Shown piece by piece: positions 14,541 through 33,021 of a DNA stretch of 34,399 nt. Within the stretch, counting starts at the first letter, position 1; each line of letters opens with the position of its first letter. The stretch spans positions 1 to 34,399 of the forward strand of contig DASXYT010000400.1 in NCBI GenBank assembly GCA_036502345.1, in the 5' to 3' direction. Under the pieces are notes generated by a model. That model was not told the origin of the DNA. It did no database searches and worked only from the letters and a program-made list of their open reading frames with translations. The position numbers and the translations under genes are program-made. This DNA comes from Pseudonocardiaceae bacterium. Its GTDB lineage: Bacteria; Actinomycetota; Actinomycetes; Mycobacteriales; Pseudonocardiaceae.

Positions 14541-14551
14541 CCCCCGTGGCG

Positions 14552-15460: not shown

Positions 15461-15498
15461 GCGTCAGAGCTCCGCACTGGTCGGGCTGGGGGTCCGGC

Positions 15499-16317
15499 TC
15501 ATGCTCGCGCACCGGCGTCGGGGAGTACAGCCTCCACACCGAGCCGGGCCAACTGATCCGGCCCCAGGTTCTCGTACGGGTCGCGGCCCTTGTAGGCGGT
15601 CAGCACGTCACGCAGCGGGCCCTGGTGCTTCACGTGCCCCTCGTCCATCCAGATGCCCGTGTCGCACAGCTCCATCAGGAACTCGTCCGAGTGGCTGGCG
15701 AACACAAGTAGACCCGACCGGTTGACCAGGTCGACCAGCCGGTCGCGGGCCTTGTCCAGGAACGCCGCGTCCACGGCGCCGATGCCCTCGTCCAGCAACA
15801 GGATCTCCGGGTTGATCGACGTCACCACACCCAGCGCCAGCCGCACCCGCATACCCGTCGAGTAGGTGCGCAGCGGCATCTGGATGTAGTCGCCGAGTTC
15901 GGTGAACTCGGTGATCTCGTCGACCCGCTTCTCCATCTGCTTGCGGGTCATACCGAGGAAGAGGCCCCGGATGATGATGTTCTCCAGCCCGGAGATCTCC
16001 GGGTCCATGCCGACGCCGAGGTCGAACACCGGCGCGACCTTGCCCTCGATCAGCGCGGAACCACGGGTCGGCTCGTAGATGCCGGCCAGCAGCCGCAGCA
16101 GCGTGGACTTGCCGGCACCGTTGTGCCCGACCAGGCCGACCCGGTCACCCTCGTGCACCGAGAGCGTGATGTCGTGCAGCGCCTCGATGATCGGCACCCG
16201 CTGGTCCATGCCGATCTTGCCGCCGACCTTGCCGAGGACAGCCTTCTTCAGGGACCGCGTTCTGGCGTCGAAGATCGGGAAGTCGACCGACGCGTTCCAG
16301 ACGTCAATGCTCACCAT
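15499..16317 (-). CDS. rfbE: ABC transporter ATP-binding protein, RfbE/Wzt-like (Rv3781-like)
   Basis: Walker A (GHNGAGKST), the ABC signature (YSTGMRVRLAL) and Walker B (ILLLDE) are present. The gene is adjacent to glfT1, as in the Mtb Rv3781-Rv3783 locus. Confidence 0.9.
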   Translation of the reverse strand: MVSIDVWNASVDFPIFDARTRSLKKAVLGKVGGKIGMDQRVPIIEALHDITLSVHEGDRVGLVGHNGAGKSTLLRLLAGIYEPTRGSALIEGKVAPVFDLGVGMDPEISGLENIIIRGLFLGMTRKQMEKRVDEITEFTELGDYIQMPLRTYSTGMRVRLALGVVTSINPEILLLDEGIGAVDAAFLDKARDRLVDLVNRSGLLVFASHSDEFLMELCDTGIWMDEGHVKHQGPLRDVLTAYKGRDPYENLGPDQLARLGVEAVLPDAGARA

Positions 16318-16330
16318 GTCGCGGCCTCAC

Positions 16331-17221
16331 TCACACCCAGTAGGACACTCGGGCCCGGTAGTTGCGCATGACCACCAAGGCCAACGCCCACCCGAGCACC
16401 GTGATACCGCCGACGGTAGCCCAGCTCCACCAGTCCACGTGCTGACCGGTCAGCGGAGCGCGCATGACCTGCACGAAGTGGTACAGCGGGTTGAGCTGGA
16501 ACAGCACCTTGGCCCACTCATTGTGCGACTTGCCGTTGCCGAACAGGTCGTCCGGCGACCACACGATGGGCGTCAGGTAGAAGGCCAGCTGGATGACGCT
16601 GTTGATCACCTGCGGAATGTCCCGGTACCGGGTGGAGATGATCCCGGCGGTCAGTGTCAGCCAGAGGCCGTTCAGCGCCAGCAGCACGAACGCGGGGATC
16701 GCGGTCAGCGACCACAGCCCGAGGCCGGGATGGATCTGCCCGAACGGCACATCCATCTGGTACGGGTGGTCCAGCGCCCCGAAGAAGATCACCAGCATGA
16801 TCACGTAGATGACCAGGTTGTGCAGCATCATCAGCGTCTGGCGCCACACGGTCCGCAGTGCGTAGACCGTCAGCGGGGCCGGCAGATGCTTGATCAGGCC
16901 CTCGTTGGTGATGAACGCGGTCATCCCCTCGGTGAGGCAGCCGTTGATGAAGCCCCACACGATGAAACCGGTGGTGACGTACGGCAGGAACACCGAGATG
17001 GGGTGCTTGAACAGCACCGCGTACAGGACGCCGAGGCCCACCGCCGTGACACCCATCGAGATGGTGATCCACAGCGGACCGATCACGGAGCGCCGGTAGC
17101 GCTGCTTGATGTCCTGCCATCCGAGGTGCGCCCACAGCTCACGCTGGGCGAGGCCCTGCCGGATGTCGTCGATGGCTCTGGTGAAGCTTCTGCTCGCCAC
17201 GCCTGCGGGCGGTCGGTCCAT
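16331..17221 (-). CDS. rfbD: ABC-2 type transporter permease, RfbD/Wzm-like (Rv3783-like)
   Basis: QRELWAHLGWQDIKQRYRRSVIGPLW is the conserved N-terminal cytoplasmic motif of ABC-2 permeases. Six TM helices are predicted. The start is taken as the ATG at 17221 (MDRPPAGV...). The GTG at 17323 is an alternative, but it would put the start 8 nt from the terminator-like hairpin. Confidence 0.85.
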   Translation of the reverse strand: MDRPPAGVASRSFTRAIDDIRQGLAQRELWAHLGWQDIKQRYRRSVIGPLWITISMGVTAVGLGVLYAVLFKHPISVFLPYVTTGFIVWGFINGCLTEGMTAFITNEGLIKHLPAPLTVYALRTVWRQTLMMLHNLVIYVIMLVIFFGALDHPYQMDVPFGQIHPGLGLWSLTAIPAFVLLALNGLWLTLTAGIISTRYRDIPQVINSVIQLAFYLTPIVWSPDDLFGNGKSHNEWAKVLFQLNPLYHFVQVMRAPLTGQHVDWWSWATVGGITVLGWALALVVMRNYRARVSYWV

Positions 17222-17330
17222 CGTGCTGGTTGCTGGCACGTCATGGAGGGTACCGGCGCGTGGTCGCCCATCTGGTGGCCGGTAGCCGGAGCGTGACCAT
17301 GGCCGTGTTCCTTTGGTGGCCACCGCACAG

Positions 17331-17362
17331 CCCGACCTGCCCGAGCTTGCGGGCAGGTCGGG
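17331..17362. terminator. Perfect 13-bp-stem hairpin (CCCGACCTGCCCG / loop AGCTTG / CGGGCAGGTCGGG) immediately downstream of bpa. It is a factor-independent terminator candidate.
   Basis: The inverted repeat is exact. It lies 41 nt after the bpa stop and upstream of the rfbD start. No strong U-tract follows it, as is common in actinobacterial terminators. Confidence 0.45.
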
Positions 17363-17402
17363 CTGCTGTTCTCAAGACCTTTGCGCAGGCCTACCGATCT
17401 GA

Positions 17403-17951
17403 TTACAGATATTGACCGGTACTGCGCAGGTGCGGCCCCTCCGACCCGTCACCGCCGGTGCCCGGCGGCAGCGCGCCCCTGCGCATCTGCTCCAACTGCA
17501 CCCTGGCGGCCATCTGCTGGGCGAACAGCGCGGTCTGGATGCCGTGGAACAGGCCCTCCAGCCAGCCGACCAGTTGGGCCTGTGCGATCCGCAGCTCGGC
17601 CTCGGACGGCGCGCTGTCCTCGGTGAACGGCAGTGACAGCCGCTCCAGTTCGTCCCGCAATTCGGGCGCCAGGCCGTCCTCCAGTTCCAGGATCGACCGC
17701 TGGTGGATCTGCTTGAGCCGGTTGCGGCTGGCCTCGTCCAGCGGCGCCGCGCGCACCTCTTCCAGCAGTTGCTTGATCATCGTGCCGATCCGCATCACCT
17801 TGGCCGGCTGCTCGACCAGGTTGCTCACGTCGCTGCCGCCCTCGATCTCACCGTCGACCATGTCCGGCATCGGCGCGGTGCCCAGCGGCGTGCCGTCCGG
17901 GCCGACCACGACGACGTGCCGCTGCCCGGTGCCGTCCGCTGCCTCACTCAT
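17403..17951 (-). CDS. bpa: Bacterial proteasome activator Bpa/PafE (Rv3780-like)
   Basis: The product is 182 aa and ends in the GQYL proteasome-docking motif (..HLRSTGQYL). The helical middle region resembles Rv3780. A strong SD (TAGGAGG) sits 8 nt before the ATG. It is adjacent to the RfbD/RfbE locus, as in Mtb. Confidence 0.85.
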   Translation of the reverse strand: MSEAADGTGQRHVVVVGPDGTPLGTAPMPDMVDGEIEGGSDVSNLVEQPAKVMRIGTMIKQLLEEVRAAPLDEASRNRLKQIHQRSILELEDGLAPELRDELERLSLPFTEDSAPSEAELRIAQAQLVGWLEGLFHGIQTALFAQQMAARVQLEQMRRGALPPGTGGDGSEGPHLRSTGQYL

Positions 17952-18077
17952 GACTGTGTCCTCCTAGGGGGTCCGTCGATGCCCAGCCTAGTGCGGTCGG
18001 GGTAATCCGAGGTGGCGACCGGTCAGCGGCCGGTACCCTCCGGCCGTCGCATTTCAGGGGCTCCGTACGGTGTGCCC

Positions 18078-19277
18078 ATGGCGTTGGACGTCGCTCGAAT
18101 TCGCGGGTTGTTCCCCGCGTTGGGCGACGGCTGGATCCACCTGGATGCACCGGCAGGCATGCAGATACCCGAACAGGTGGCCACGGCAGTGTCTATGGCC
18201 CTGCGCGCGCCGGTGTCCGGTCCGGGCGGTGTGTTCCCCGCTTCGCACCGCGCCCAGGCCATCGTGGACGCGGCTCGAAGGGCGGTCGCCGACCTCGTCG
18301 GCGCCGACCCGGCCGGGGTGGTGCTCGGGCCGAGTTCCGCGGTGCTGCTGGCCCGGCTGGCCGATGCGCTGGGCGCCGGCTGGCTGATCGGCGACGAGGT
18401 CGTGGTGTCCCGGCTGGACCACCCGTCCAACACGGCGCCGTGGCAGCAGGCGGCGCAGCGCTGCGGTGGCATCGCGCGCTGGGCCGAGATCGACATCGAG
18501 ACGTGCGAGTTGCCCGCCTGGCAGTACGACGACCTGGTCACCGCACGCACCAAGGCGGTCGCCATCACGGCGGCGTCCGGCGCGGTCGGCACCCGGCCGG
18601 ACCTGAACCGGATCTCCGAGACCGCCCGGCACGCCGGTGCCCTCGTCATCGTGGACGCGTCGTCGGCTGCGCCGTTCATGCCTGTCGACATGGCCACCCT
18701 CGGCGCGGACATCGTGGTGCTGTCCGCCAGCGCGTGGGGCGGCCCGCCGGTGGGCGCGCTGGTGTTCCGCGATCCCGCGCTGCTGGACCGGCTGCCGTCG
18801 TGCTCGCTGGAGCCCGGCGCCAAGGGGCCTGAGCGGCTGGAACTCGGGCCGCACCCGTACTCGCTGCTGGCCGGGCTGGTGGCGTCGGTGGACTACCTGG
18901 CCGAGTTGGACGATTCCGCCAGCGGGCCGAGGCGGGAGCGCGTGCTCACGTCGATGGGCTCGATGAAGGCCTACCAGGCCGGGTTGCTGGCCGGCCTGAT
19001 CAGCGAACTGCGGTCACTGCACAACGTGATGGTCATCGGCGACGCGATGCGGCGGGTGCCGGTGTTCGCGTTCGCCGTGGCCGGGGTGCGTGCCGAGGAC
19101 GCCGTCGAGCACCTCGGCAAACGAGGCATCTGCGCGTTCGCCGACAACGGCCACAACGGTGTGTTCGCGGCCCTGGGCATCGGCGAGGTCGGCGGCGCTG
19201 TGCGGGTCGGCCTCGCGCACTACACGAACACCGTCGAGGCCGACCAACTGGTGCGCAGCGTCGCCGAACTGGGTTAG
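18078..19277 (+). CDS. Class-V aminotransferase / cysteine desulfurase-like PLP enzyme (Rv3778c-like)
   Basis: The fold I class V pattern is present (RLDHPSNTAPWQ; a Lys-containing region; the C-terminal domain). The start is taken at the ATG at 18078 (MALDVARIRGLFPALGDGWIHLDAPAG); the track ORF begins at 18012. The gene sits next to bpa on the other strand, as Rv3778c does in Mtb. Confidence 0.8.
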   Translation: MALDVARIRGLFPALGDGWIHLDAPAGMQIPEQVATAVSMALRAPVSGPGGVFPASHRAQAIVDAARRAVADLVGADPAGVVLGPSSAVLLARLADALGAGWLIGDEVVVSRLDHPSNTAPWQQAAQRCGGIARWAEIDIETCELPAWQYDDLVTARTKAVAITAASGAVGTRPDLNRISETARHAGALVIVDASSAAPFMPVDMATLGADIVVLSASAWGGPPVGALVFRDPALLDRLPSCSLEPGAKGPERLELGPHPYSLLAGLVASVDYLAELDDSASGPRRERVLTSMGSMKAYQAGLLAGLISELRSLHNVMVIGDAMRRVPVFAFAVAGVRAEDAVEHLGKRGICAFADNGHNGVFAALGIGEVGGAVRVGLAHYTNTVEADQLVRSVAELG

Positions 19278-20257
19278 TTCGCCTTCAGCACGACCTTGCC
19301 GACGGCCTGGCTGCCCTCCACGATCCGATGCGCGTCGCTCGCCTGCTCCATCGGCAGCGTCTGCCCGATGACCGGCTTGACCTTGCCCGCCTCGATCAGC
19401 GGCCACAGCTGCGCTGTCACGGCAGCGATGATCTCCGCCTTGCTGCCGGGCCCGTCGACGGGCCGGCCACGCAGTCCTGTCGAGCCGACCGATGCCCGCT
19501 TGCCCATCAGCGAACCGATGCTGAGTTCCGCGCGGTTGCCACCCTGCATGCCGACGATCATCAGCCGGCCGCCGATCGCGAGTGCGTCGATGTTGCGGTC
19601 CAAATAGGACGCACCCATGTTGTCCAGGATGACGTCGGCGCCGTTCGTGGCGGCCTTGATCTCCGCGACGAAGTCCTGCTCCCGGTAGTTGATCAGGATG
19701 TCGGCGCCGAGGGCCTTGCAGTGTGCGAGCCGGTCCGCCGAGCCCGCCGTGGTGGCGACCGTGGCGCCCAGTGCCTTGCCGACCTGGATGGCGTGCGTGC
19801 CGATGCCGCCGGCGCCGCCGTGCACGAGCAGTGTGTCGCCGTCGGCCAGGCCGGCCAGCGTGACCATGTTCGACCACACGGTGCACGCCACCTCCGGCAG
19901 TCCGGCCGCGGCCACCAGGTCGACACCCTTCGGCAGCGGCATGAGCTGCGCGGCCGGCACGGCAACGCGCTGCGCGTAGCCACCGCCTGCGAGCAGGGCA
20001 CACACCTGGTCGCCGACCTGCCAGCCGGTGACGCCCGCGCCGAGTTCGGCGATCGTGCCGGAACACTCCAGCCCGAGGATGTCGGACGCGCCGGGCGGCG
20101 GCGGGTAGTGGCCCTGCCGCTGCAACAGGTCGGCCCGGTTCACCGCGCTGGCCGCCACGTCGAGCAGCACCTCGCCGTCACCGGGCGTCGGGTCGGGGAC
20201 TTTCGCCCACGTGAGGACTTCCGGGCCACCGGGTTCGCTGATCGTGATCGCGTACAT
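19274..20257 (-). CDS. qor: NADPH:quinone oxidoreductase (zinc-independent MDR superfamily, Qor-like)
   Basis: The product is 327 aa. The N-terminal MYAITISEPGGPEVL and the Rossmann motif GGAGGIGTHAIQVGKALGA are present, and it ends VVLKAN. The start is the ATG at 20257. The 570-aa track ORF is an upstream artefact. Confidence 0.85.
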   Translation of the reverse strand: MYAITISEPGGPEVLTWAKVPDPTPGDGEVLLDVAASAVNRADLLQRQGHYPPPPGASDILGLECSGTIAELGAGVTGWQVGDQVCALLAGGGYAQRVAVPAAQLMPLPKGVDLVAAAGLPEVACTVWSNMVTLAGLADGDTLLVHGGAGGIGTHAIQVGKALGATVATTAGSADRLAHCKALGADILINYREQDFVAEIKAATNGADVILDNMGASYLDRNIDALAIGGRLMIVGMQGGNRAELSIGSLMGKRASVGSTGLRGRPVDGPGSKAEIIAAVTAQLWPLIEAGKVKPVIGQTLPMEQASDAHRIVEGSQAVGKVVLKAN

Positions 20258-20311
20258 GGAGAGCACGGTAATTCGTTCGCGTGCCGAGGTGCGCGGCGGC
20301 AGCATCGGTAC

Positions 20312-20965
20312 ATGGAAGAGATGCCCGATCCGTGGCCGTTGTGGCAGCTGGAGCTGCGCACCCCGAGACTGACACTCCGCCCGGACGAGGACGTAGGGCT
20401 GGTCGAGCTGATGGCCGAGGCGTGCCGGGGCGTGCACCCGCCGGACGAGATGCCGTTCGGCATCCCGTGGACCGATGCGCCGCCGACCAACATGGTCCGG
20501 GAGGGCATCAAGTACCACTGGGCGAACAGGGTGGCGTGCGTGCCGGCGGACTGGCAGGTGAACTTCCTGGTGCGCCACGAGGGCCGGGTCATCGGTAGCC
20601 AGAGCCTGCGGGCGAAGGACTTCGCGGTGACGAGGAACGTGGACAGCGGTTCCTGGATCGGCCTGCGCCACCAGGGCAAGGGCTTCGGTACCGAGATGCG
20701 CGCGGCGATCCTGATGCTGGCGTTCGACCACCTGGACGCCACGGCCGCCAGATCGTCGGCGTTCCACGACAACCAGCGATCGCACGGCGTGAGCCGCAAA
20801 CTGGGCTACGAGGCCGACGGCACGTACGTCGAGAAGCGCCGAGGCGAGCCGGCCGTGAACGTCCGCCTGGTGGTCACACCGGAGCGGTTCACGAGGTATC
20901 GGCCGGACTGGAAACTGGAGGTCAGCGGCCTGGACAGGGCACTGCCGGTGTTCGGGCTGGCGTAG
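20312..20965 (+). CDS. GNAT-family N-acyltransferase (RimJ/RimL-like)
   Basis: The product is 217 aa starting MEEMPDPWPLWQLELRTPRLTLRP. This is a typical RimJ-like N-terminus, and the acyl-CoA-binding region QGKGFGTEMRAAIL is present. It is divergent from qor with a 54-bp spacer. Confidence 0.8.
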   Translation: MEEMPDPWPLWQLELRTPRLTLRPDEDVGLVELMAEACRGVHPPDEMPFGIPWTDAPPTNMVREGIKYHWANRVACVPADWQVNFLVRHEGRVIGSQSLRAKDFAVTRNVDSGSWIGLRHQGKGFGTEMRAAILMLAFDHLDATAARSSAFHDNQRSHGVSRKLGYEADGTYVEKRRGEPAVNVRLVVTPERFTRYRPDWKLEVSGLDRALPVFGLA

Positions 20966-20970
20966 ACATG

Positions 20971-21004
20971 GATCTGGGTGCGGCATCGAGGCCGCACCCA
21001 GATC
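20971..21004 (+). terminator. 14-bp perfect-stem hairpin (GATCTGGGTGCGGC / loop ATCGAG / GCCGCACCCAGATC), 5 nt after the GNAT stop
   Basis: The inverted repeat is exact and sits directly downstream of the stop at 20963-20965. It lacks a clear T-tract. Confidence 0.5.
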
Positions 21005-21433
21005 AACTCAACGGTTCCGTTGGCGGTGGCGCAATGGGTGGCGTGGAACGCCATCCGGAGGTCAGGAGACGTCCGGGGAGCTGACGTTCAACAGCGTCGA
21101 GTCGCGCGGGAGGGGCGTCGCTGGCGCCTGCGCAACTGGAGAACCGACGGCACACCGCCATTCGCGATCAGTCGACATCGCACCACCTGACCTTCCCGGG
21201 CGGCCGCGTTGGCGAGCTGGTTACCGCTGCTTGGCCGTCCAGTTACCAGAGTGCCCCTGTTAGCCAGGTCACACAACCCAAACAACGCCTCTGAGCTGCG
21301 AAAATCCACTGAACCGGTCCCGAAGAGACCCAGCGTGACCGGTGGTGTGGCACACCGTGTCCGCTGGTGCCCGGGTGAGTGAAGCGGCAACCCTGGCTGA
21401 CCCGCCGAGTAGCCGCCGATAAGCTGACCCCAG

Positions 21434-21518
21434 GGAAGCGTGGCAGAGCGGCCGAATGCATCCGCCTTGAAAGCGGAAGACGGGCAACCGTCCGGGGGTT
21501 CAAATCCCTCCGCTTCCG
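21434..21518 (+). tRNA. tRNA-Ser (anticodon TGA, decodes UCA). It has a long variable arm and no encoded CCA.
   Basis: The sequence folds by hand as follows. Acceptor stem GGAAGCG/CGCTTCC, perfect 7 bp. A 3-bp D-stem. Anticodon stem TCCGC/GCGGA with loop CTTGAAA. A long variable arm AGACGGGCAACCGTCCG. T-stem GGGGG/CCCTC with T-loop TTCAAAT. Discriminator G. Confidence 0.85.
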
Positions 21519-21520
21519 CA
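21465..21520 (+). repeat. 56-bp direct repeat, copy 1. This is the 3' portion of tRNA-Ser, from the anticodon loop through the discriminator plus CA.
   Basis: The sequence CCTTGAAAGCGGAAGACGGGCAACCGTCCGGGGGTTCAAATCCCTCCGCTTCCGCA is repeated exactly at 22687-22742. Confidence 0.85.
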
Positions 21521-21820
21521 GGTCTGGCCAGTAAGAACAGCCGTGGACCTGCCATGGGGCGGGTTCACGGCGTCGTCGATGACCTCACTTCATGACTGCC
21601 ACGTGAAGATGGGAAGGCAGCATGGACGACTCACATTGTCGCCAGGCCCAAGGTTGATTTCGGCGGACTCTGCCTCAGCACCAGCGTTCGACTGACCGGC
21701 ATCTGTAACGATCCGAAGCAACTGTTGGTGGCTGGTCGACCGTCAGCAGCAGCATGGCAGTGGCCCAGTTGCTGTTGAGGACCGAACTGGGTCTTGTTGC
21801 TCTGCAAGAAGAACTTCCAG

Positions 21821-22225
21821 TTACTTGTTGCCGATCAACGTCAAGCCTTCGTGTTCGGCGAAGTCTTCATAGTCTTTCACGTTGCGGGTGGCCAGCGGGA
21901 CATCGTAGGCGAGGCAGCAGGCGGCTATCCAGGAATCGTTCCCGGGGCGTGGGCGGCCTCTGAGCGCGGCGTATGCCGTGATGGTGCCCCAGGTGTGGGC
22001 GACATCCTGGTCGCTGTGCAGGACGTGCTTGCCGACGAGCCATCGAGCCAGCAGTTCCCGGCGATGTGGTCCCCATTGGCGTTGCTCGACCCATCTGGTC
22101 AGTTCGCCCAGCGTGACGAACGTGATGAGCAGCGGCCGACCGGCCAGCAGCCGGGCCATGTCCGCAGGCAGCTTGCGCTTGATGATCAACGACGCTACGT
22201 CGGTGTCCAGTGCAACGGGCTCCAC
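21821..22225 (-). CDS. vapC: PIN-domain ribonuclease toxin VapC
   Basis: The product is 134 aa. The PIN acidic residues are in place (LDTDVAS; E about 42; D about 97 in NDSWIAA; the C-terminal NVKDYEDF). The GTG start lies 2 nt after the vapB stop. Confidence 0.85.
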   Translation of the reverse strand: MEPVALDTDVASLIIKRKLPADMARLLAGRPLLITFVTLGELTRWVEQRQWGPHRRELLARWLVGKHVLHSDQDVAHTWGTITAYAALRGRPRPGNDSWIAACCLAYDVPLATRNVKDYEDFAEHEGLTLIGNK

Positions 22226-22227
22226 GG

Positions 22228-22431
22228 TCAGGCGATATCCGCTCGTCGGGCCGCGTAGGTGACGTCCAGGAACTCATCCAACTCGTCGTCAGACTCGAAG
22301 ATGCCGTCGCCGGCCCAGTCGTCGACCGACCTGATCGGCTGGACACCCTCACGGCGGAGAGCTTCCTCCAACGCCTCTCGCGCACCGGGGCGGGGCACGA
22401 CGTGCCGCGAGTGATCGTCCGCTGCTGTCAT
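22228..22431 (-). CDS. vapB: VapB-type antitoxin (67 aa)
   Basis: The ATG at 22431 is preceded by AAGGAGG with 7-nt spacing. The small acidic C-terminus is typical of antitoxins. It is translationally coupled to vapC. The longer ORF reaching 22476 lacks an SD. Confidence 0.75.
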   Translation of the reverse strand: MTAADDHSRHVVPRPGAREALEEALRREGVQPIRSVDDWAGDGIFESDDELDEFLDVTYAARRADIA

Positions 22432-22686
22432 GTCGCACCTCCTTGGCCGGGCTGGTCGCCAACCAAGGTTGGCCAACCTGCTTGGTCAGTGTCTCATGAT
22501 CCCGCCTTGCAGGCGATCAGCGCGACTCCCCGGTCGCGGTAGGCACTACCGGGCGAAGGCCCGGTCTCAATGCTGGTCTCATTGGTCTTGCGTTCGCCGG
22601 GGTGCAAAAATGTCCAGCCGTCGCATTGTGCCTGGTAGAAGCCGTGGTTGGACCTTCTCGAACCCCGTTGAACCCCGATGCGAAGA

Positions 22687-22742
22687 CCTTGAAAGCGGAA
22701 GACGGGCAACCGTCCGGGGGTTCAAATCCCTCCGCTTCCGCA
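22687..22742 (+). repeat. 56-bp direct repeat, copy 2 (partial tRNA-Ser 3' half; attR-like)
   Basis: It is identical to 21465-21520. The flanking bases diverge immediately outside the repeat on both sides. Confidence 0.85.
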
Positions 22743-22786
22743 AACGAACTGTGACCGGCGTGAACGTCTTCAACGAGGTCGACGTC

Positions 22787-24727
22787 TCAGGGTTTGCCGA
22801 TTGCTCGCAGGATCCTGAGACCGTCGTGACCGCTGCCAGCCTTTCGGGCTGCATCAGCCACTGTCCGATCCGGATGCTCGGTGGAGATCACTTCGAGCAT
22901 GCCGGCACGATCGGGATGGTCTGTGCCGGCCAGCGCGCGGACAAAGCCGATCTGGTCCTCGACCGGATACGTCGTCAGATCTGCGATCAACACGTCGTGT
23001 TCGTGCAACGCGGCGAAGTTGTCCGCCAACGACAGGGTGAGCTCCTGCTCGCTCGCATCGCTCCTGTCGAGGACGGAGTCCTGGATCAGCCAGGTGGTCG
23101 CGACCGCGCCGGCCAGGCCACCTGCGGAGCGCAGCCGCTGTACCTGTGCCACCCCCGCCGCGCCGGTGTGCGCCAATCCGTTCATCGCTACCAGGCGTGC
23201 CCAGGACGAGGACGTGTTGACACAGAACGCGGCCAGTTCGGCGGCGGCGGTGTCCGCACCCCGCACCGCAACCCACGCGATCAATACCGCATCGGTCACC
23301 TCGGCAGTCGCGTACTCCAGCGAACCGCACATCACGTCGACCGGCTCGCGGGCCAGATCCTCGATCAGCGGGACGTCGAACCCTTCCCCGCGCAGTGCAT
23401 CCCGCACGCCCCACAGGCCAAGCGGGGTCAGCCGCACGAGGGTCAGGTCGGGCTCATCGTTGCCGGACAGCTCGATCAGCTTGTCCCGCTCCGCGGGGTC
23501 GGTGGACGTGGTCAGGTCGACGGCCCCCAACAGCTCCATCGCGGTCAGCACCGCGGCCAGGTCGCGTCGCCACAGCAGTTCCCGAGCATCGACGATCAGG
23601 CTGCCCACGCTGGGAGCGACCGGTTCGACCAGAGCGTCCCGGATGATCTCGACCAGCAGCTCTACCGGCACCGGTGTGCCGCCAGCGGTATAGAGGCTCA
23701 GCCACAGCGCAGGCGCCACCTCCGGTAGCAATTGACCCAGCAGTGCTGGGGCCTCGTAGTAGCTGGTCGGAACGCACACCACTGGACCCAGCTCGGGGAA
23801 CGCGTCGAACGCCCGCTGCCATAGTTCGAGTGGGCGGTCCAGCAACCCGGCCGAGCTCCTGATGCCGATCAGCTTGCCCTTGACCACTCGCACCAGGTGG
23901 GCCGCCTTGGCCCATTCCACCAGCAGACTGACCTCGGGCAGGTCCGCGCTGCTGCGCGCCCGGGCCAGGTAGGGATGATCCACCTTCAGCAGCCCGGCCA
24001 GGTCCTTCGCGTCGGCCACCCGCAGCCGTTTGGTCGAGGTGAGCGTGCGGCCGGTACCCACCCAGATCACGAGCGCGCGCAGCCGGGTGACCAGGGGCGC
24101 GGATGTGGCCAGCGTGATCAGTTCCTCGGTTCCGGGGAGCGACACGGGCGGCAGCAGCCGATCCCCGTCGTCCTCGAAGTCGAAAGCCCCGATCTCCTCG
24201 TCGAACGAGCCACGCCGCATGATCTCGGCCAACACGTTCTGGTCGTAGTCGATCTCGCCGGTCTGGGCCATTGCCAGAAAGCGCCGCACCTGAGTCTCGT
24301 CCTCTGCGTCGACTCCGTTCTCGATCATTCTGGTTGCCCAGAACTTGGCCACACCGTAATTGCGTTCATCGGTCATGGCGGCCAGGAAAGCCGCCGTGTT
24401 CCGGTCGATCTCGGCGTGCAGCGCCGCCACGTCATGGGACCGCGTGGGGTGTCGGTCGGCCAGGAAGTCGATCCAGCCGTGCAGCGTGGGGATCACACCG
24501 GGGCGTTCGGATTCGGGAATGGTGACCTTGCGGGGGAACAGTTCGACCATGAGTTCGTGGAGGTCGTGGGCTGTCCACGGAACGCATTCCATCAGGTCCA
24601 GGGCTGTTTCGATGACGAACAGGTCCACATCGAGCCCGTGATCGTCGGTCCATGAGGCGAACTCAGTCATCAAGTCCTCGGGCGAGGTGTCGAGCCGGTG
24701 ATGTCCATCGTGGTGGTCAGCCATCAT
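22787..24727 (-). CDS. Hypothetical protein (about 646 aa) with an acidic His-rich N-terminus. I do not recognise a function.
   Basis: The long ORF has a protein-like amino-acid composition and no S/R/A skew. The start is taken at the ATG-ATG at 24727/24724 (MMADHHDGHH...). It lies in the lower-GC accessory segment. Confidence 0.7.
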   Translation of the reverse strand: MMADHHDGHHRLDTSPEDLMTEFASWTDDHGLDVDLFVIETALDLMECVPWTAHDLHELMVELFPRKVTIPESERPGVIPTLHGWIDFLADRHPTRSHDVAALHAEIDRNTAAFLAAMTDERNYGVAKFWATRMIENGVDAEDETQVRRFLAMAQTGEIDYDQNVLAEIMRRGSFDEEIGAFDFEDDGDRLLPPVSLPGTEELITLATSAPLVTRLRALVIWVGTGRTLTSTKRLRVADAKDLAGLLKVDHPYLARARSSADLPEVSLLVEWAKAAHLVRVVKGKLIGIRSSAGLLDRPLELWQRAFDAFPELGPVVCVPTSYYEAPALLGQLLPEVAPALWLSLYTAGGTPVPVELLVEIIRDALVEPVAPSVGSLIVDARELLWRRDLAAVLTAMELLGAVDLTTSTDPAERDKLIELSGNDEPDLTLVRLTPLGLWGVRDALRGEGFDVPLIEDLAREPVDVMCGSLEYATAEVTDAVLIAWVAVRGADTAAAELAAFCVNTSSSWARLVAMNGLAHTGAAGVAQVQRLRSAGGLAGAVATTWLIQDSVLDRSDASEQELTLSLADNFAALHEHDVLIADLTTYPVEDQIGFVRALAGTDHPDRAGMLEVISTEHPDRTVADAARKAGSGHDGLRILRAIGKP

Positions 24728-24890
24728 CTGACCACTATCGTGGTTCGGTCGATGCGGTCCGCGCAGACCCCCTCTCGGCGCGGTCCGACACAATTGCGAG
24801 ACGGGCCGGACCAGGCCGAACGAGACTCCTGGCGGTGACTACTGGGAACAAACGTGGCCAGTACTATCACTGTTGTGTACGATTGTTCCC

Positions 24891-25469
24891 GTGGTGGAGA
24901 GGCTGGATCAGTTGCCGGCGACCTTCAGCTACCGGGAAGCGCGCGAGCGGGGTGTGTCCAAGCGTCAGTTGTACCGGTGGCGTGACGACGGTGCGATCGA
25001 AGTGCTGAGCCGTGGCCTGTACCGGCGAATGAACGCCTCGCTGGTGGACACAGACCTGATCGAGATCGCCCATCGCGCGCCCGAGTCGACCTTGTGCCTG
25101 ACATCGGCGCTGGTCCGGCACGGCTTGAGTGACGCGATCCCGGCGGCACACGATGTGGCGATACCGAGAGGACGCCGTCCCCCCGTCGTGTCGGCGCCGG
25201 TGACCTGGCACCGGTTCGATCCCGACACCTTCGGTGTCGGCCGCGAGGCGCTGCCGTTGGACGAGCAAGTCACGATCGGCCTGTACAGCGCTGCCCGCGC
25301 GATCGTGGACGCATTCCGACTGTCTGGCCAGCACGGCTATGACGTGGCGTACGAGGCGCTACGTCGTTGGGTGCGCGCTGATGGGACGCCTGCAGACCTG
25401 TTGGAAGTCGCGTCGCACTTCCCTCGAACGATTCCCCGTCTGCGGACCGCCCTGGAGATCCTGCTGTGA
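24891..25469 (+). CDS. AbiEi-like (type IV TA antitoxin / transcriptional regulator family) protein
   Basis: The N-terminal domain (LPATFSYREARERGVSKRQLYRWRDDGAIEVLSRGLYRR) matches the AbiEi_4 pattern, which has an L-P-x-x-F region followed by G-x-Y-R. Start candidates are the GTG at 24891 or the TTG at 24873. Its stop overlaps a downstream ATG as ATGA, as is typical of abiEi-abiEii pairs. Confidence 0.65.
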   Translation: MVERLDQLPATFSYREARERGVSKRQLYRWRDDGAIEVLSRGLYRRMNASLVDTDLIEIAHRAPESTLCLTSALVRHGLSDAIPAAHDVAIPRGRRPPVVSAPVTWHRFDPDTFGVGREALPLDEQVTIGLYSAARAIVDAFRLSGQHGYDVAYEALRRWVRADGTPADLLEVASHFPRTIPRLRTALEILL

Positions 25470-25656
25470 CCGACAATCGCCCCACCGGCAGGGCCTTCTG
25501 GAACCACGTTGCGCCGATGGCAGCGTGGCGACGCAAACAGAAGCTCGACATCGTCCTACCCGAGCAGTTCCGGGACATCCTGGCTGCCGTCCGGGCTATG
25601 GTGCTGAAGATCAAGACCAGTGCGCACCACTCTCTCGGCGAACCCGCTGCTGGTCG
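25466..25656 (+). pseudogene. Possible remnant of the AbiEi partner (toxin) gene. Only about 60 codons remain before the ORF runs antisense into the next gene.
   Basis: The ATGA overlap with the AbiEi stop is present. The first roughly 60 residues look protein-like (MTDNRPTGRAFWNHVAPMAAWRRKQKLDIVLPEQFRDILAAVRAM...). Beyond about 25650 the frame becomes Ser/Ala/Arg-rich, which is an antisense artefact, and it overlaps the convincing minus-strand gene 25657-26862. No nucleotidyltransferase (KGG) motif is seen. Confidence 0.25.
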
Positions 25657-26862
25657 TCAGGATGGTGTCGGGGCTGCGTCCGTGACCTGGCCGACGAGTT
25701 CCGAGGGCAGACCGGCTCTCTCGGCGAGCCACAGGGCCCACTCCGCGAACATCGACTTGACGGCAAGTGTCGCCGGGTGGTCCGGAATCCAGTCGCCGTC
25801 GATCAGTTCGGTGTGGAACTCGACACGGTGTGGCGAGATCAGATACCGAGTCTCGGGCAGAGTGCCTTCCAGCCATTCTTCGGCGAGCGCTTCGACGGTC
25901 TCCTGCTCGGGCGGCGTGTCGTGGCGGTCGGCGTACCAGGAGGAGAACTCCGTCACCATCGGTTCGGCGTCCAGGTCGTGGTACAGCGACTCGGGATCCG
26001 GCCAGAGCCGAGGCGACTTGCGGAGCGCGTGCGCGATGTCGTGGACGCACCGGTTCGCCCTGAACCAGTTGTCGAGCACATCGCGAGCTTCGTCGCCGTT
26101 GACCATGTCGCTGCCGATGTCGCACTGGGCGAGGCAACTGAGCTGCTCGCCGGTGTGCACCTCGACCGGCTCGGCGCCGGCCGCCTGGTCACCGACCAAT
26201 GTCCGCCAGGCCGCGGCCGCCTGCGGCAGGTCGTCATAGGCTCCCGCGTGGGTCAGCGTGATGAATCCGCATGCGTCGATATCGAACAGGAACGCTGACG
26301 GATTGGCACCGTGCGGGTAGGACATGGCCGCCAGCACGGCGAGCCGTGTGCCGTACGCGTCCTGCATCCGCCAGACTTCGCCGGTCGCCTTGACCAGGTG
26401 CGACGACGCCAGCCAGCGTGGCTGCCGCGCGAACGCGGGTCGTCGCCTGGCGACCTTCAGCAGGCCGTTGATCTGATGGCGGGCGAACGACCGCAGTGCC
26501 GGGGAGCCGATCGCGGCCAGGCCGTGCAACAGCAGCCAGTCGCCTGTCAGATCGTCCGCGTCCCGGACGCGGTCGGCGGCGGCCACCGTCAGTTCTTCGA
26601 ACAACCAGTTGAACCGCAGGTCGCGTCCTACGTCGTGGATGGCCCGATGCATCTGCTCGCCCAGCAGTTCGCAGGTGGCCTGTTCCAACTCGCGCGGACC
26701 AGCCGCCTTACTGAGCGCATCCGTGTTGTCGAGGACGGCCGCGATGGACCCGGCGAACCAGGACGGCCGCTCGCGAACGGCTGCCGGCTCGTGGTCGATC
26801 CATTCGGAGCTCGACCGCCGCACATTGTGCTTCTTCTTGCGAACCTTCGACGCGGGCGACAT
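25657..26862 (-). CDS. Hypothetical protein (401 aa), function unknown
   Basis: The long ORF has a balanced composition and a Lys-rich N-terminus (MSPASKVRKKKHNVRRSS). Its C-terminal region shares a short TEF(A/S)SW..D.H motif with the N-terminus of the 646-aa protein. Confidence 0.65.
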   Translation of the reverse strand: MSPASKVRKKKHNVRRSSSEWIDHEPAAVRERPSWFAGSIAAVLDNTDALSKAAGPRELEQATCELLGEQMHRAIHDVGRDLRFNWLFEELTVAAADRVRDADDLTGDWLLLHGLAAIGSPALRSFARHQINGLLKVARRRPAFARQPRWLASSHLVKATGEVWRMQDAYGTRLAVLAAMSYPHGANPSAFLFDIDACGFITLTHAGAYDDLPQAAAAWRTLVGDQAAGAEPVEVHTGEQLSCLAQCDIGSDMVNGDEARDVLDNWFRANRCVHDIAHALRKSPRLWPDPESLYHDLDAEPMVTEFSSWYADRHDTPPEQETVEALAEEWLEGTLPETRYLISPHRVEFHTELIDGDWIPDHPATLAVKSMFAEWALWLAERAGLPSELVGQVTDAAPTPS

Positions 26863-27429
26863 CTGCCGATGTTATGACAAGGGTAGGACTTGGGTATGGA
26901 CCAGGACGAACTCCGGCGACGTTTCGCCGCGCTGACCACCGCCCACCTGGCCGACGGATCGCGGGCCATATGTGCCCGGCCCGGCATTTCAGCCTGGGCA
27001 CGATCCCCACCGGCCCACTGCACCTCGGCACCGCCCCGACGATGCGCTGGAGTCCGCCACCGTCGGCGAGTGGACGGTCGGACAGGCCGACCAGATCCGC
27101 TCCGGTGGGTCCCTACGCGACCAGGTCCGGTTCGACGCCTACCTCGCCGCCCGCCAACAGAAACCATCACTCAGCTTCCGCGACCACCTGCGAACCGTAC
27201 GCGGCGAGATCGAGGTCTGACGCCTCAGCTCCAGTCCCTGGGCTGCGCCATGCGGGTTCCGGCGACCACGTTTACCGCGGTTGTAGCAGTACGAGATGAG
27301 CGCAATATCGTCATACGTGAGCGCTGACCTGTGAGACAATGAGACCTGCTCAATTAACTGCTGTCGAAGTGTGGGCGGAGCGCAGTCTTGCTAACTACCG
27401 CCCGTAGGGAGCTGGATAGGACCGGAGGT

Positions 27430-27627
27430 ATGAATCATGCCCTGCGGTACTTCGCGCCGCCCATGAAGGACGCAGCGCCCGGTAGCTTCACGGCGCGTGA
27501 AGCGTATATATTTCGATGCCCCAAATGTACTCGCACGCCGCAGATCAAACTAGATCGATGGTGGCGCTTTCTTGACGAAAGCGTCCGTGTGGGCTTGGAC
27601 GTCGTCGACATATCCTTGCTACCCTGA
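27430..27627 (+). CDS. Small ORF (65 aa) with a CPKC motif, in the low-GC spacer
   Basis: The ATG at 27430 directly follows GGAGGT (MNHALRYFAPPMKDAAPGSFTAREAYIFRCPKCTRTPQIKLDRWW...). The local GC content is about 55-60%. Confidence 0.35.
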   Translation: MNHALRYFAPPMKDAAPGSFTAREAYIFRCPKCTRTPQIKLDRWWRFLDESVRVGLDVVDISLLP

Positions 27628-27763
27628 CAGCACTGCATGCGAGTCGGCAGCCCCTGGGCGCGGACGGGGTCACTTTCCGGGCTGGGCATCCTACGCGCCT
27701 AGCCACTTCGCATGTAGCCCGCTCATCCGGTGGGTCGGTTGACGACGTCCACCGGAGGTACCG

Positions 27764-27910
27764 ATGAGCCGCATGACGGCAGTTGGTTCGTCAGACGACG
27801 AGCAGACCGATGGCCATTTGTCGATGGGGCATCGCCGTCGGCGACCCCGTCCCGCCGTCGCTTTGGAGATACTGCTTTATGCGCTTGGGCGCCACAAGGG
27901 TTGGCTGTAG
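27764..27910 (+). CDS. Small ORF (48 aa, basic)
   Basis: The ATG at 27764 is preceded by CCGGAGGTACCG, an SD with 5-nt spacing (MSRMTAVGSSDDEQTDGHLSMGHRRRRPRPAVALEILLYALGRHKGWL). It is not in the ORF track because it is shorter than 60 aa. Confidence 0.3.
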   Translation: MSRMTAVGSSDDEQTDGHLSMGHRRRRPRPAVALEILLYALGRHKGWL

Positions 27911-27962
27911 CTCACTACCCGTACTGGGCCGTTGAACTAGCACCGGCCAATCGGGACAGGAG

Positions 27963-28532
27963 CTACTTTCCGGCGGTCGGGCTCGGCAAGGACGCCTTGA
28001 AGGACGCCGTCCACTGTGTCACCGGGCTGGTACAGGATTTGCCGTCGCCGGTCGCACACGTCTGGCTGTTCCACACCAGGAAGCTCAGCACCAACACTCC
28101 CACCAGGACCAACCCGTGGATTCGCCGCGTTATCGCGAGCGCGGGGAGGCCTGCCCGTGCCGCCCCTTGTAGTCGGTCCGCCACAGTCATGACGGCTGTC
28201 CCGTACGCGTAGACGACTTCGTGCGGGGCCCGACCGAAGCCGCGCGTCACCCGGCTGATCCCGAGGTCTGGCAGCAGCAGGAATACCCGAAGCAATTCCA
28301 TGAGCTCGACCACCGGCCGCACCAGGATGGTAGCCAGCCACGGGATGACGCGCCTCGTGATCAGCCGGAGCAAGGCGTAGCAGCCGATGCCGGCCAGAAC
28401 GAGCTCGAAGAATGTGCGCAGCCAGAACGTGATCCCGATTTGCGCCGCGATGCCGTCAACCAAGGTTACGAGATAACCCAGCAGCGGTGTGCCGCTGAGC
28501 GGGTTGAGCACCTCGCTGAGGTGGTGGACCAT
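27963..28532 (-). CDS. Small integral membrane protein (189 aa, about 4 TM). It is the last gene of the TIR/STAND/SPFH operon.
   Basis: Hydrophobic helices are present (LLGYLVTLVDGIAAQIGITFWL; LVLAGIGCYALLRLI; GLVLVGVLVLSFLVW). Its ATG overlaps the upstream SPFH gene stop as TAATG. Confidence 0.7.
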   Translation of the reverse strand: MVHHLSEVLNPLSGTPLLGYLVTLVDGIAAQIGITFWLRTFFELVLAGIGCYALLRLITRRVIPWLATILVRPVVELMELLRVFLLLPDLGISRVTRGFGRAPHEVVYAYGTAVMTVADRLQGAARAGLPALAITRRIHGLVLVGVLVLSFLVWNSQTCATGDGKSCTSPVTQWTASFKASLPSPTAGK

Positions 28533-29527
28533 TACTCGTCCTCCTCGTCGCCCTGGTCCATCGGTCCCAGGTCGATAGGCCCTGACACCGCAGGCTGCTG
28601 GTCCGCCTTGCCGATACCGAGCGCGCTGACGCCACGCAACTTGTCGATCACGATGCTGCTGGCGTTCGCCATGATGGCCGCTACGTCCTTCCGGTTCACC
28701 AGGTTCGCGTCCAGCAATTGGTTCAACACGGTGTTGGCGCCCTCGAACTCCAGCCGTTTCTGCTGCATGATCAGGTTGATCACATCATTGACGTCCTCGG
28801 TGTGCCCGGCCAGTCGCAACGCCAGCACATTGAGGTCGTCGGTCCGCAGCGCGTCGGCATAGAATCGCATCCGCTGCTCCTTCAACTGCAACTCGTGCTG
28901 CTCCTGGGCCGTCTCCAGTTCCCGCTTGTGCTTTGCCCGGAGCAGTTCCAAATCGTGGTCGTACCTTTCGCGTTCCTGCAGGCGCCCGGCCAGCGTGCGG
29001 TTGGCGATGTGTTCCCTTGTGGCATCGTCGAGTACCAGCACCACGGTGCAACGACTGACGACAACCGCTTTGGACACTTCGATCGCGCGATCGCCATAGT
29101 GCAGGTTGATCCTCCGTTCCGCGTCGGCACTGTGTTCTACCTCGTAGCCGCGGGTCACCTCGCGGAGCCGCTCCTCAAGGTAGCTACCGATGAACGGCAG
29201 CGGATTCGTGAGCCTGCCTGCGACGGCGGCCACCGGGTCGGCCACGCGCCAAGTGACCCGTACCTGCGCGGTGAAGGTGAACGCCTCCTCCATCGACGGC
29301 AGTTGGAGTTCGATGCTCTCCTGGTGCGGGGCGACATCGACCTGGTACACCTCCTTCGGAGTGCGCAACCAGAGCTCACCGTGGGTCAGCCGGCTGCTGC
29401 CGACTTCGTACCGGCCCTGTTTGGTCAGGTACACGACAGCGGTGTGACCGGATGAGACCGGGTTGAGCTTGCGCAGCGTGTTCCGGTCAGCAGCGAGTTG
29501 CTCGATGATCGCGTTGGGCTCGGCCAC
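28532..29527 (-). CDS. Soluble SPFH/band-7-like domain protein with a long C-terminal coiled coil (flotillin-like), about 331 aa
   Basis: The region TAVVYLTKQGRYEVGSSRLTHGELWLRTPKEVYQVDVAPHQESIELQ...TAQVRVTWRVADPVAAV resembles the SPFH core. It is followed by heptad-rich stretches (LELLRAKHKRELETAQEQHELQLKEQRMRF) and an acidic tail. The GTG start at 29527 lies 2 nt after the NTPase stop, with AAGGGG upstream. Confidence 0.65.
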   Translation of the reverse strand: MAEPNAIIEQLAADRNTLRKLNPVSSGHTAVVYLTKQGRYEVGSSRLTHGELWLRTPKEVYQVDVAPHQESIELQLPSMEEAFTFTAQVRVTWRVADPVAAVAGRLTNPLPFIGSYLEERLREVTRGYEVEHSADAERRINLHYGDRAIEVSKAVVVSRCTVVLVLDDATREHIANRTLAGRLQERERYDHDLELLRAKHKRELETAQEQHELQLKEQRMRFYADALRTDDLNVLALRLAGHTEDVNDVINLIMQQKRLEFEGANTVLNQLLDANLVNRKDVAAIMANASSIVIDKLRGVSALGIGKADQQPAVSGPIDLGPMDQGDEEDE

Positions 29528-29528
29528 G

Positions 29529-32811: not shown

Positions 32812-33021
32812 CCGAATCCCCCTCGGGAATGAACCACTGTCCGCAACATGTGCAGCAGACGCCATACGACTCGCCGTTGCATCCCGTATTGCGGAACTGT
32901 CCAGATGTTGTCCAGTAGGGCAGCGGTCGACCGTCCGCCGTGGATGCGCCAACAGGCTCGCCACGGTCAGCTGTATCCCAGAGGAGCGTGCTTGTGACGG
33001 AGGGTAGTCGCTACCCTTAGA

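Follow-up and report, generated by a model that had tools for sequence, protein, structure and literature searches.

Cis-mobilizable elements (CIMEs) were first described for the ICESt1-related islands of Streptococcus thermophilus, and a case of accretion and cis-mobilization is also cited for Streptomyces (PMC5704250). The window analyzed here is an entire 34,399-nt contig from a metagenome-assembled genome (MAG) deposited at NCBI as 'Pseudonocardiaceae bacterium'. It contains an element of comparable design, namely, a toxin–antitoxin (TA) gene pair, vapBC, placed between the gene of tRNA-Ser(TGA) and a displaced copy of the 3' half of this gene. As in CIMEs, both attachment (att) sites, attL and attR, are kept, both copies being exact, and the genes for integration and transfer are gone, only vapB and vapC being left (PMC5704250). 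The site occupied by the cassette has alternative occupants and adjoins variable DNA, as in tandem accretion. Unlike typical CIMEs, the cassette is about ten times smaller, has the TA pair as its sole cargo and is located in an actinobacterial tRNA gene, its mobilization being putative; in addition, the same cargo lineage recurs at several tRNA att sites.

The integrative elements of actinomycetes, particularly pSAM2, SLP1 and the pMEA-type actinomycete integrative and conjugative elements (AICEs), target tRNA genes, have a size of 10–25 kb and carry int, xis, replication and transfer functions. The cassette is similar to them in host group and in the att identity, which extends from the anticodon loop to the 3' end and sometimes covers the whole gene (loci L034 and L101), but it contains no int, xis, replication or transfer genes. 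TA pairs within larger elements are represented by HipAB, located in a composite island at tRNA-Trp of Shewanella, which it stabilises (PMC8978831), and by SezAT/AbiE, which stabilises the integrative and conjugative element (ICE) ICESa2603 (PMC11062541). The likeness is that att sites enclose a TA pair, which would make excision or deletion of the element costly, and the difference lies in the large cargo and own integrase of those elements, whereas the TA pair is the whole element here. On Acinetobacter plasmids, TA 'dif modules' are bounded by XerC/D sites. TA cassettes also occur in chromosomal integrons (PMC13108822). Both types share with our cassette a TA pair bracketed by recombination sites and a recombinase encoded elsewhere; however, the sites are attC, or pdif in the case of the dif modules, instead of tRNA-derived att, and the recombinases and hosts are different.

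For Sulfolobus islandicus, tRNA genes with insertion remnants have been listed, and one of these regions, at tRNA-Met, contains vapBC; it belongs to another domain of life and involves another integrase type, and neither vapBC-only cassettes bounded by repeats nor a recurrent operon position beside a displaced fragment is described there (PMC3718332). Integrase-less att-flanked islands and TA-stabilised islands are both already known. A full-text literature search returned no description of a TA-only cassette of about 1.2 kb, the closest being the list of Sulfolobus remnants (PMC3718332), and no description of one VapBC lineage located beside displaced tRNA fragments at several tRNA species.

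Analysis of the window with ARAGORN, Rfam (57.8 bits for the tRNA gene; gathering score 29) and a repeat search reproduced to the base the original prediction of a tRNA-Ser(TGA) gene with an exact 56-bp duplication of its 3' half about 1.2 kb downstream (Table 1). The two copies are spaced by 1,222 nt from start to start. Copy 1 begins a single nucleotide ahead of the 7-nt anticodon loop (CTTGAAA), and its end lies 2 nt beyond the discriminator base; copy 2 is not called a tRNA gene by ARAGORN or Rfam. No third copy of the 56-mer was found in the 34.4-kb window with up to 3 mismatches allowed, and no copies appeared in 100 shuffles; a generic repeat, the objection raised beforehand, is thus not what the window contains. 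The interval between the copies (21521–22686, 1,166 bp) contains two minus-strand genes, vapC and a vapB-like gene, and no other credible open reading frame (ORF). All details predicted for it were confirmed, including the AAGGAGG Shine–Dalgarno sequence and the GTG located 2 nt after the vapB stop: the vapB TGA is followed by CC and then by the vapC start codon. The AT-rich stretch pointed out at 21780–21830 is also real: its GC content of 47% compares with an average of 68% for the window and ranks it in the lowest 0.3% of 51-nt segments. It corresponds to the vapC stop codon and its surroundings.

The same arrangement was found in an independent contig of the Joint Genome Institute (JGI) from another sample (L100), which is colinear with positions 31995–19888 of the window at 99.94% identity and contains both 56-mers. 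The Logan unitig L001 comprises the interval and, on either side, exactly 30 nt of the repeat, which is the overhang predicted by k=31; with this k, it fits the integrated and the circular form alike.

The profile of the VapC family matches solved VapC and FitB structures, down to E=1.7e-12, and the best NCBIfam matches of VapC are models of tRNA(fMet)-specific VapC, every one of them below its curated cut-off. In the family alignment, D7, E41 and D118 are invariant and D97 is nearly so, and these are the candidate acidic residues of the PIN domain. The ratio of nonsynonymous to synonymous substitution rates (dN/dS) is 0.09–0.20 for vapC and 0.05–0.24 for vapB, values by which both genes are under purifying selection. 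Judged by sequence, namely, by dN/dS and the conserved candidate acidic residues, the pair is functional.

The antitoxins of the family consist of about 65 aa with a variable N-terminal third, and most share the C-terminal motif ...P(I/V)xS..(D/E)..FESDEELDEFL...R. VapB gave no match in Pfam, NCBIfam and PDB, so no DNA-binding domain (AbrB, RHH, Phd or HTH) is recognisable in it. The claim of a canonical VapB is therefore lowered, and that of an antitoxin is unaffected; the proteins may represent an undescribed VapB-type family. A candidate ORF of 60–95 aa ends at the vapC start in nearly all of the 87 vapBC loci collected. A scan of the cassette for terminators and promoters detected no terminators and a single weak promoter-like site, inside vapC.

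Genes for recombinases were found neither in the interval nor in the window as a whole. Pfam scans of plausible ORFs gave no Phage_integrase or resolvase match, and nothing credible came from tblastn of the window with four queries, namely, one large serine recombinase, the Int protein of phage L5 and two tyrosine integrases taken from related loci, in line with the predicted absence of an integrase from the interval. A regular-expression search for box II of tyrosine recombinases produced nothing useful. The sole candidate for an integrase remnant in the arms, a match of 19/56 identities to the integrase of locus L022, is antisense to vapB, lacks the catalytic motif and was rejected as spurious.

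In related loci, where integrases were located via Pfam and the phage L5 Int probe, 130 ORFs flanking vapBC included only two tyrosine recombinases and two TrwC relaxases. Locus L022 contains a 284-aa integrase directly upstream of vapB, in the order int, vapB, vapC, and in L027 the C-terminal 66 aa of an integrase of this type (94% identity) are left in the same place. A weak integrase remnant is present between vapC and tRNA-Met in L050. Locus L058 resembles an ICE and combines tRNA-Phe and vapBC with genes of a tyrosine integrase and a TrwC relaxase. L022, L027 and L058 hint at descent of such cassettes from an autonomous ICE or IME by deletion; they are relatives at only 53–56% VapC identity, and a parent element for the tRNA-Ser type was not detected.

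More than 1,500 relatives of VapC are present in databases, the closest named ones coming from Pseudonocardiaceae MAGs. The 87 vapBC loci were oriented with vapBC on the plus strand, scanned for T arms and inspected. A T-arm-like match was found within 700 nt of vapBC in 28 of them, about two thirds having none, and the density of T-arm-like motifs, whole tRNA genes included, is five times higher within this distance than elsewhere in the loci (Poisson P=6e-13). Those inspected proved to be tRNA genes or 3' tRNA fragments, with Ser, Tyr, Met, Thr, Arg and Ala represented. The 3' fragments, which are not called by ARAGORN, start at the anticodon loop or up to about 5 nt 5' of it in Ser, Tyr, Met and Thr tRNAs, and most of them, like the partial copy in the window, are found on the opposite strand about 200–450 nt upstream of vapB. 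Complete tRNA genes are located 230–390 nt downstream of vapC and convergent with it, as in the window, in L015, L034, L023, L006 and L007; the opposite orientation or side was found in L051, L078, L079, L068, L024, L030, L069 and L074.

Cassettes containing vapBC only and bounded by repeats are represented by five loci, with sizes of 1.07–1.29 kb, four of them in tRNA genes (Table 1). The VapC proteins of the window and of L015 are 61% identical, synonymous divergence (dS) being about 1.5 and saturated, and the outer flanks are unrelated. Their tRNA-Ser genes are about 82% identical over the 56-nt repeat, and yet each repeat is perfect (56/56) and has the same two boundaries. In L034, the whole tRNA-Arg(TCT) of 77 nt is duplicated together with about 10 nt of its 5' flank (4238–4314 and 5306–5382), and the copies differ in the anticodon loop alone (T vs GG), like a crossover scar. 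L034, L023 and L015 are flanked by ordinary metabolic genes.

Longer islands have the same ends. A perfect tRNA-Tyr repeat of 51 nt encloses an island of 9.2 kb in L087, with vapBC at its far end and with TIR/SEFIR, NUDIX and SMODS genes, but no integrase, as cargo; L007 has the same ends and lacks 8.3 kb of cargo between vapC and the tRNA. Downstream of vapC, other fragment-bearing loci contain defence genes, which encode Mrr, a methylase with McrBC, DUF3375 and a TOTE primase-helicase. The T stem of the fragments in the tRNA-Tyr group is AGTGG/CCACT (L087) or GAAGG/CCTTC (L004, L089), and the L087 form is that of its own tRNA.

A VapC clade of at least 70% identity comprises L022, L027 and cassettes linked to tRNA-Met, tRNA-Thr and tRNA-Tyr. 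In the clade of the window VapC (at least 79% identity), the other members are mostly tRNA-Tyr-linked, and L005 and L090 have no tRNA nearby. These mixed tRNA links within clades indicate that the module changed its att context repeatedly. Between close relatives at different sites, homology mostly ends at the operon borders or within about 35 nt of them. The arms of the window have no similarity to those of its closest, tRNA-Tyr-linked relatives; this had suggested 'arm swapping' but carries no weight, dS of 0.5–0.9 making neutral arms unalignable anyway.

The site itself is polymorphic among close relatives. Strain L094 (same species, JGI 3300036819) is 99.8% identical to positions 14515–21519 of the window, i.e., over the 7 kb upstream of the tRNA, which are syntenic in L097 and L098, and the identity ends exactly at the tRNA 3' end. 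The tRNA of L094 has an encoded CCA end, followed by a hairpin and by the gene of a large serine recombinase instead of the cassette. L097, a sister species (Qor 88% identity), has the same flank and a truncated copy of this recombinase at 1475–2270. To our knowledge, serine recombinases are not known to target tRNA 3' ends. In L098, a related species (Qor 80% identity), the tRNA ends in GCA, as in the window, and is directly followed by sequence similar to B', the native flank located after copy 2; blastn aligned L098 1411–1514 with window 22790–22687. In a 60-nt global alignment, the L098 flank is similar to the window flank after copy 2 (z=5.7; score 12, the best of 300 shuffles reaching 11) and has no similarity to the sequence after copy 1, i.e., the P' arm (z=-0.2). 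This junction resembles an empty-site-like state, as expected of an unoccupied attB. Relatives with uniformly identical content, which would have pointed to a non-mobile origin, were thus not observed, and the other occupant in L094 and the empty-site-like L098 support a mobile one.

Contig L101 (same species, JGI 3300036855), in which a complete tRNA-Ser and 6 upstream nt adjoin B' and the right flank, was considered as a same-species empty site and rejected because the next 34 nt upstream differ from the left flank of the window. These 34 nt look like the native tRNA leader in diverged form. Between the inner repeat edge and the contig end there are exactly 127 nt (56 + 71), a length that points to a branching of the assembly graph at k=127 and, with it, to more than one allele in the sample; L101 may be the far junction of the serine-recombinase element. 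The ORF of the serine recombinase in L094 has no stop before the tRNA and reads through it in antisense.

The arms of the cassette contain a number of motifs (Table 1), and GGTCTCA and GAACCCCG are among those arranged in tandem. Five of the nine TGAGAC sites of the window lie within 22491–22821 (330 bp). The palindrome AGGTTGGCCAACCT and the nearby TGAGACACT are candidate operator or promoter elements. Although the non-coding arms of the window and L015 are no longer alignable, the motif layout is kept: TGAGAC is found at offsets -356, -344 and -271 in the window and -354, -342 and -263 in L015, two TGAGAC-containing repeats 12 nt apart are located about 140–150 nt upstream of vapB in both, and both have TGAGACACT near the promoter and a 10-nt tandem repeat beside the core. 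The proximal TGAGACACT is also present upstream of vapB in L004, L087, L089 and L091; its occurrence in tRNA-Tyr cassettes too, 35–65 nt upstream of vapB, indicates that this motif belongs to the operon. The distal tandem motifs were found only in the two tRNA-Ser cassettes, those of the window and L015. TGAGAC as an arm motif of the whole family was rejected, since it is confined to these two loci, the promoter-proximal copy aside. The perfect repeats, the shared layout and the T-stem match point to recent events, ongoing recombination or gene conversion, and not to old drifting scars.

On balance, the locus is probably an integrase-less att-flanked TA cassette of CIME-like type, with an origin by tyrosine integrase, subsequent loss of the integrase, retention by addiction and possible mobilization in trans; its mobility at the present day is the more doubtful part, conceivable rather than likely. 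The att-type anatomy, the recurrence at several tRNAs, the strain polymorphism with the empty-like site, the selection on an intact TA pair and the absence of a recombinase are observed directly, and the recombinase class, the order of events, addiction and any mobility are inferred from them. A circular DNA carrying vapBC and an attP, i.e., a copy of the 3' half of tRNA-Ser(TGA), would have recombined with the chromosomal tRNA gene by site-specific recombination of tyrosine-integrase type. The crossover would be placed in or near the anticodon loop because this is the established sublocation pattern of tRNA-targeting integrases. Recombination would have restored a complete tRNA gene at attL and left a 56-nt duplicate of the 3' half at attR. 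The likely ancestor would be either a larger island or a small int-vapBC element, the integrase having since been lost, as intact L022 and the remnant in L027 may illustrate. In its present state, the cassette has neither integrase nor excisionase, and its sole cargo is an intact type II TA pair under purifying selection, consisting of a predicted PIN RNase related to tRNA-cleaving VapC and FitB and a putative short antitoxin. Loss of the cassette would entail loss of the unstable antitoxin, and addiction would thus keep the cassette while other island genes turn over. With both att sites intact, a cognate integrase could excise or move it in trans, or it could move together with a neighbouring element.

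The original prediction had interpreted the locus as the footprint of an integrative element, which the att anatomy, the site polymorphism and the recurrence support. Both of its versions, a decayed island and a minimal hitchhiker, find support in the integrase decay seen in L022/L027 and in the perfect repeats and shared layout of two diverged tRNA-Ser cassettes, and its conclusion from the perfect repeats, recency or gene conversion, stands. As a member of a recurrent class of vapBC modules linked to tRNA att sites, the cassette is not merely an isolated relic.

Several observations weigh against this interpretation. Gene conversion could account for the perfect repeats, the copies being 1.2 kb apart. 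The motifs in the arm might act as VapB operators and not as sites for a recombinase, the TGAGAC core being part of the promoter-proximal motif that accompanies vapBC in tRNA-Tyr cassettes. The likeness of the L098 flank covers only about 48 nt at about 65% identity, one score point above shuffles, and neither an excised circle nor a clean empty site from the same species was recovered. An integrase with matching specificity was not detected in the window or next to the mini-cassettes L034, L023, L015 and L006 (the latter by Pfam annotation). A phage or plasmid origin was rejected: blastn of the cassette against phages and plasmids matched the tRNA part only, an exact 56-mer scan of viral contigs gave 0 matches, and a VapC-profile scan of viral contigs gave no relatives.

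Some of the same findings would suit a cassette of identical origin, reduced by deletion of all other genes, that is now inert, with repeats perfect through recency or gene conversion and arm motifs serving transcription or autoregulation of vapBC. It has no recombinase in cis, an integrase remnant occurs upstream of vapB in L027 and a weak one between vapC and tRNA-Met in L050, the fragment in L023 is decayed, the operon evidently owns at least TGAGACACT, given its place upstream of vapB in tRNA-Tyr cassettes, and internal indels occur, L007 being L087 minus 8.3 kb. Such a dead relic is nevertheless rather unlikely. Long repeats are perfect in four independent cassettes or islands (56 nt in the window and in L015, 48 + 37 nt in L034, 51 nt in L087) despite a dS of 0.5–1.5 in vapBC, the T stem of the L087 fragment tracks its own tRNA, which is unexpected of a free-drifting relic, and the distal tandem motifs are present only in the two tRNA-Ser cassettes and not with the operon elsewhere. 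A further alternative does without a dedicated recombinase. A RecA-dependent single crossover (Campbell-type) of tRNA-bearing DNA, or a swap of tRNA-flank alleles by homologous recombination, would account for the whole-tRNA duplications, namely, 77 nt with 10 nt of flank in L034 and the complete tRNA-Ser with 6 nt and a foreign upstream flank in L101; the three downstream alleles within one clade (cassette, serine-recombinase gene, B'-like flank) fit allele replacement, and the homology of close vapBC relatives at different sites does end at operon borders. A homologous crossover, however, would not start the duplication at the anticodon loop in four tRNA species, nor would it give identical boundaries in two tRNA-Ser cassettes, and 56 nt is a poor substrate for RecA, all of which makes this route improbable.

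VapC toxins cleave tRNAs in the anticodon stem-loop. The fragments begin at the anticodon region, where VapC toxins cleave, tRNA(fMet)-specific endonucleases and FitB are the nearest matches of the VapC profile, and the association with tRNA is strong (28/87 loci), so that a functional coupling could be considered in which the tRNA or its 3' half is a target, decoy or regulatory element of VapC, or in which 3' halves made by VapC seed the duplications. This is very improbable in view of the neighbourhood of a single VapC clade (at least 70% identity) to Met, Thr or Tyr tRNA, of fragments in both orientations and on both sides of the operon, and of the many loci, about two thirds, without a tRNA-like element within 700 nt; moreover, tyrosine integrases that target tRNA genes classically cross over in the anticodon loop as well. 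A misjoin of the MAG contig across the 56-nt repeat deserves mention because the window is a metagenome contig, the same-species contigs L095 and L096 end before the tRNA (at window positions 20735 and 21161) and L099 of a related species ends at the tRNA. Such an artefact is the least credible explanation, since the independent L100 spans both repeats and their flanks at 99.94% identity and L015, L034 and L087 show the same architecture in unrelated assemblies.

An extension of the CIME-like interpretation to a whole, apparently undescribed class is tentative and may well prove wrong. It would comprise integrase-less att cassettes of 1.1–1.3 kb with one VapBC lineage as sole cargo, settled at att sites between the anticodon loop and the 3' end in no fewer than four tRNA species of Actinobacteria, kept competent for recombination through perfect repeats that follow the host tRNA and conserved arm motifs, moved in trans by resident tRNA-specific integrases and serving as the outer anchor of tRNA-linked defence islands. 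Examples for the anchor idea are the cargo turnover between L087 and L007 and the genes downstream of vapC in other loci (Mrr, McrBC, JetA-like, TOTE, TIR, SMODS).

If the interpretation is true, a TA pair alone can occupy and hold a tRNA integration site without a recombinase of its own, and the same occupation has been repeated at different tRNA genes in soil Actinobacteria. It would also provide a concrete case for chromosomal TA modules as the addictive residue of mobile elements and make tRNA-Ser(TGA) in the lineage of the window a strain-variable hot spot beside defence-like genes. A VapBC of this family next to a tRNA 3' fragment would then be a marker for the outer borders of integrase-less islands that are missed by integrase-based prediction. 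No established principle would be changed.

Table 1. Features of the window, of the alternative occupant in strain L094 and of related vapBC loci
Feature	Position or locus	Strand	Remarks
tRNA-Ser(TGA), intact	21434–21519	+	ARAGORN; attL side, native 5' half and 56-nt identity segment
56-nt direct repeat, copy 1	21465–21520	+	exact match to copy 2
P' arm, non-coding, 300 nt	21521–21820		tRNA 3' end to vapC stop; GC 0.587
vapC, PIN-domain toxin, 134 aa	21821–22225	-	GTG start; Pfam PIN E=1.5e-6, above curated cut-off
vapB-like antitoxin gene, 67 aa	22228–22431	-	AAGGAGG 6 nt before ATG
P arm, non-coding, 255 nt	22432–22686		upstream of vapB; several repeat motifs
14-nt palindrome AGGTTGGCCAACCT	22466–22479		P arm; 35–48 nt upstream of vapB start codon
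Promoter-proximal motif TGAGACACT	22491–22496	-	P arm
Tandem pair GGTCTCAATG / GGTCTCATTG	22563–22584		12-nt spacing
Tandem pair GAACCCCGTT / GAACCCCGAT	22660–22679		7 nt before repeat copy 2
56-nt direct repeat, copy 2	22687–22742	+	displaced partial tRNA-Ser 3' half; attR core
B', native downstream tRNA flank	22743–22790		resembles sequence directly after tRNA-Ser in related species L098
Variable defence-like region, outside cassette	22787–34399		11.6 kb; absent from syntenic loci L094, L097, L098
Unknown protein, 627/668 aa	within 22787–34399
AbiEi_4-like regulator	24873–25469		Pfam
Unknown protein, 401 aa	within 22787–34399
Band_7/SPFH protein	28532–29596		Pfam
735-aa protein	29529–31736		faint nSTAND3 match, Pfam
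TIR_2 protein, 486 aa	31726–33186		Pfam
Fur-family protein	33023–33490		Pfam
Large serine recombinase	L094 4–1462		Resolvase, Recombinase and Zn_ribbon_recom domains; abuts tRNA-Ser 3' end
Cassette in tRNA-Ser(TGA)	window		56-nt repeat; 1,222-nt period
Cassette in a different tRNA-Ser(TGA)	L015		56-nt repeat; 1,067-nt period
Cassette in tRNA-Arg(TCT)	L034		48 + 37 nt repeat; 1,068-nt period
Cassette in tRNA-Met	L023		decayed copy; 1,288-nt period
Cassette in terminator downstream of tRNA	L006		17-nt repeat; 1,101-nt period
tRNA-Tyr fragments	L004, L008, L011, L087/88		more distant: L089, L091
tRNA-Met fragments	L032, L045, L066, L080		more distant: L061, L071, L084
tRNA-Thr(GGT) fragments	L009, L017
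tRNA-Ser(TGA) fragments	L015, L075
tRNA-Arg(TCT)	L034

The left flank of the tRNA is represented by housekeeping genes, namely, genes of a GNAT protein, a PIG3-type quinone oxidoreductase and a class-V aminotransferase (Pfam/NCBIfam), as well as, by synteny with L094 and L097, ABC-transporter and glycosyltransferase genes. To the right of copy 2, the GC content is 0.651, against 0.696 in the left flank, and the stretch 24873–33490 also holds several unknown proteins of 189–668 aa. By its annotated domains, this right flank looks like a defence island, and the presence of variable defence-like DNA beyond copy 2 makes the site look like an accretion hot spot. A 56-mer search detected no second distal att copy in the window. 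The 668-aa flank protein, tried as a synteny probe in species-representative genomes, was uninformative, since it gave one distant locus only (47% identity, an Actinokineospora MAG).

A second TGAGAC tandem pair, TGAGACAATGAGAC, is located at 27332–27345 on the plus strand, in a low-GC non-coding stretch at about 27300–27650, and its orientation is opposite to that of the pairs in the cassette arm. It could bind the same protein as those pairs or mark where a different element of the right region begins or ends. ARAGORN also called an 89-nt 'tRNA-Arg(CCG)' at 27064–27152; Rfam at the gathering threshold finds tRNA-Ser alone in the window, and the call is probably a false positive in GC-rich sequence.

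Locus L004 contains, in addition to its intact vapBC, fragments of a second vapB (83–86% identical) and a second vapC (75–79% identical) at 8732–8819 and 12096–12347; they precede the intact pair by about 1.1 kb and follow it at about 2 kb, a pattern that suggests nested or tandem insertions of related cassettes. Direct repeats of 17–45 nt that are not tRNA-like surround vapBC with a spacing of 0.84–1.0 kb in L010 (270/1208), L040 (657/1671) and L070 (901/1743); similar cassettes may therefore exist at non-tRNA att sites. Many close and mid-distance VapC homologues are located on contigs of about 1.19–1.25 kb. A k-mer graph would give this length for a cassette bounded by repeats, a hint that cassettes flanked in this way are frequent in soil metagenomes.

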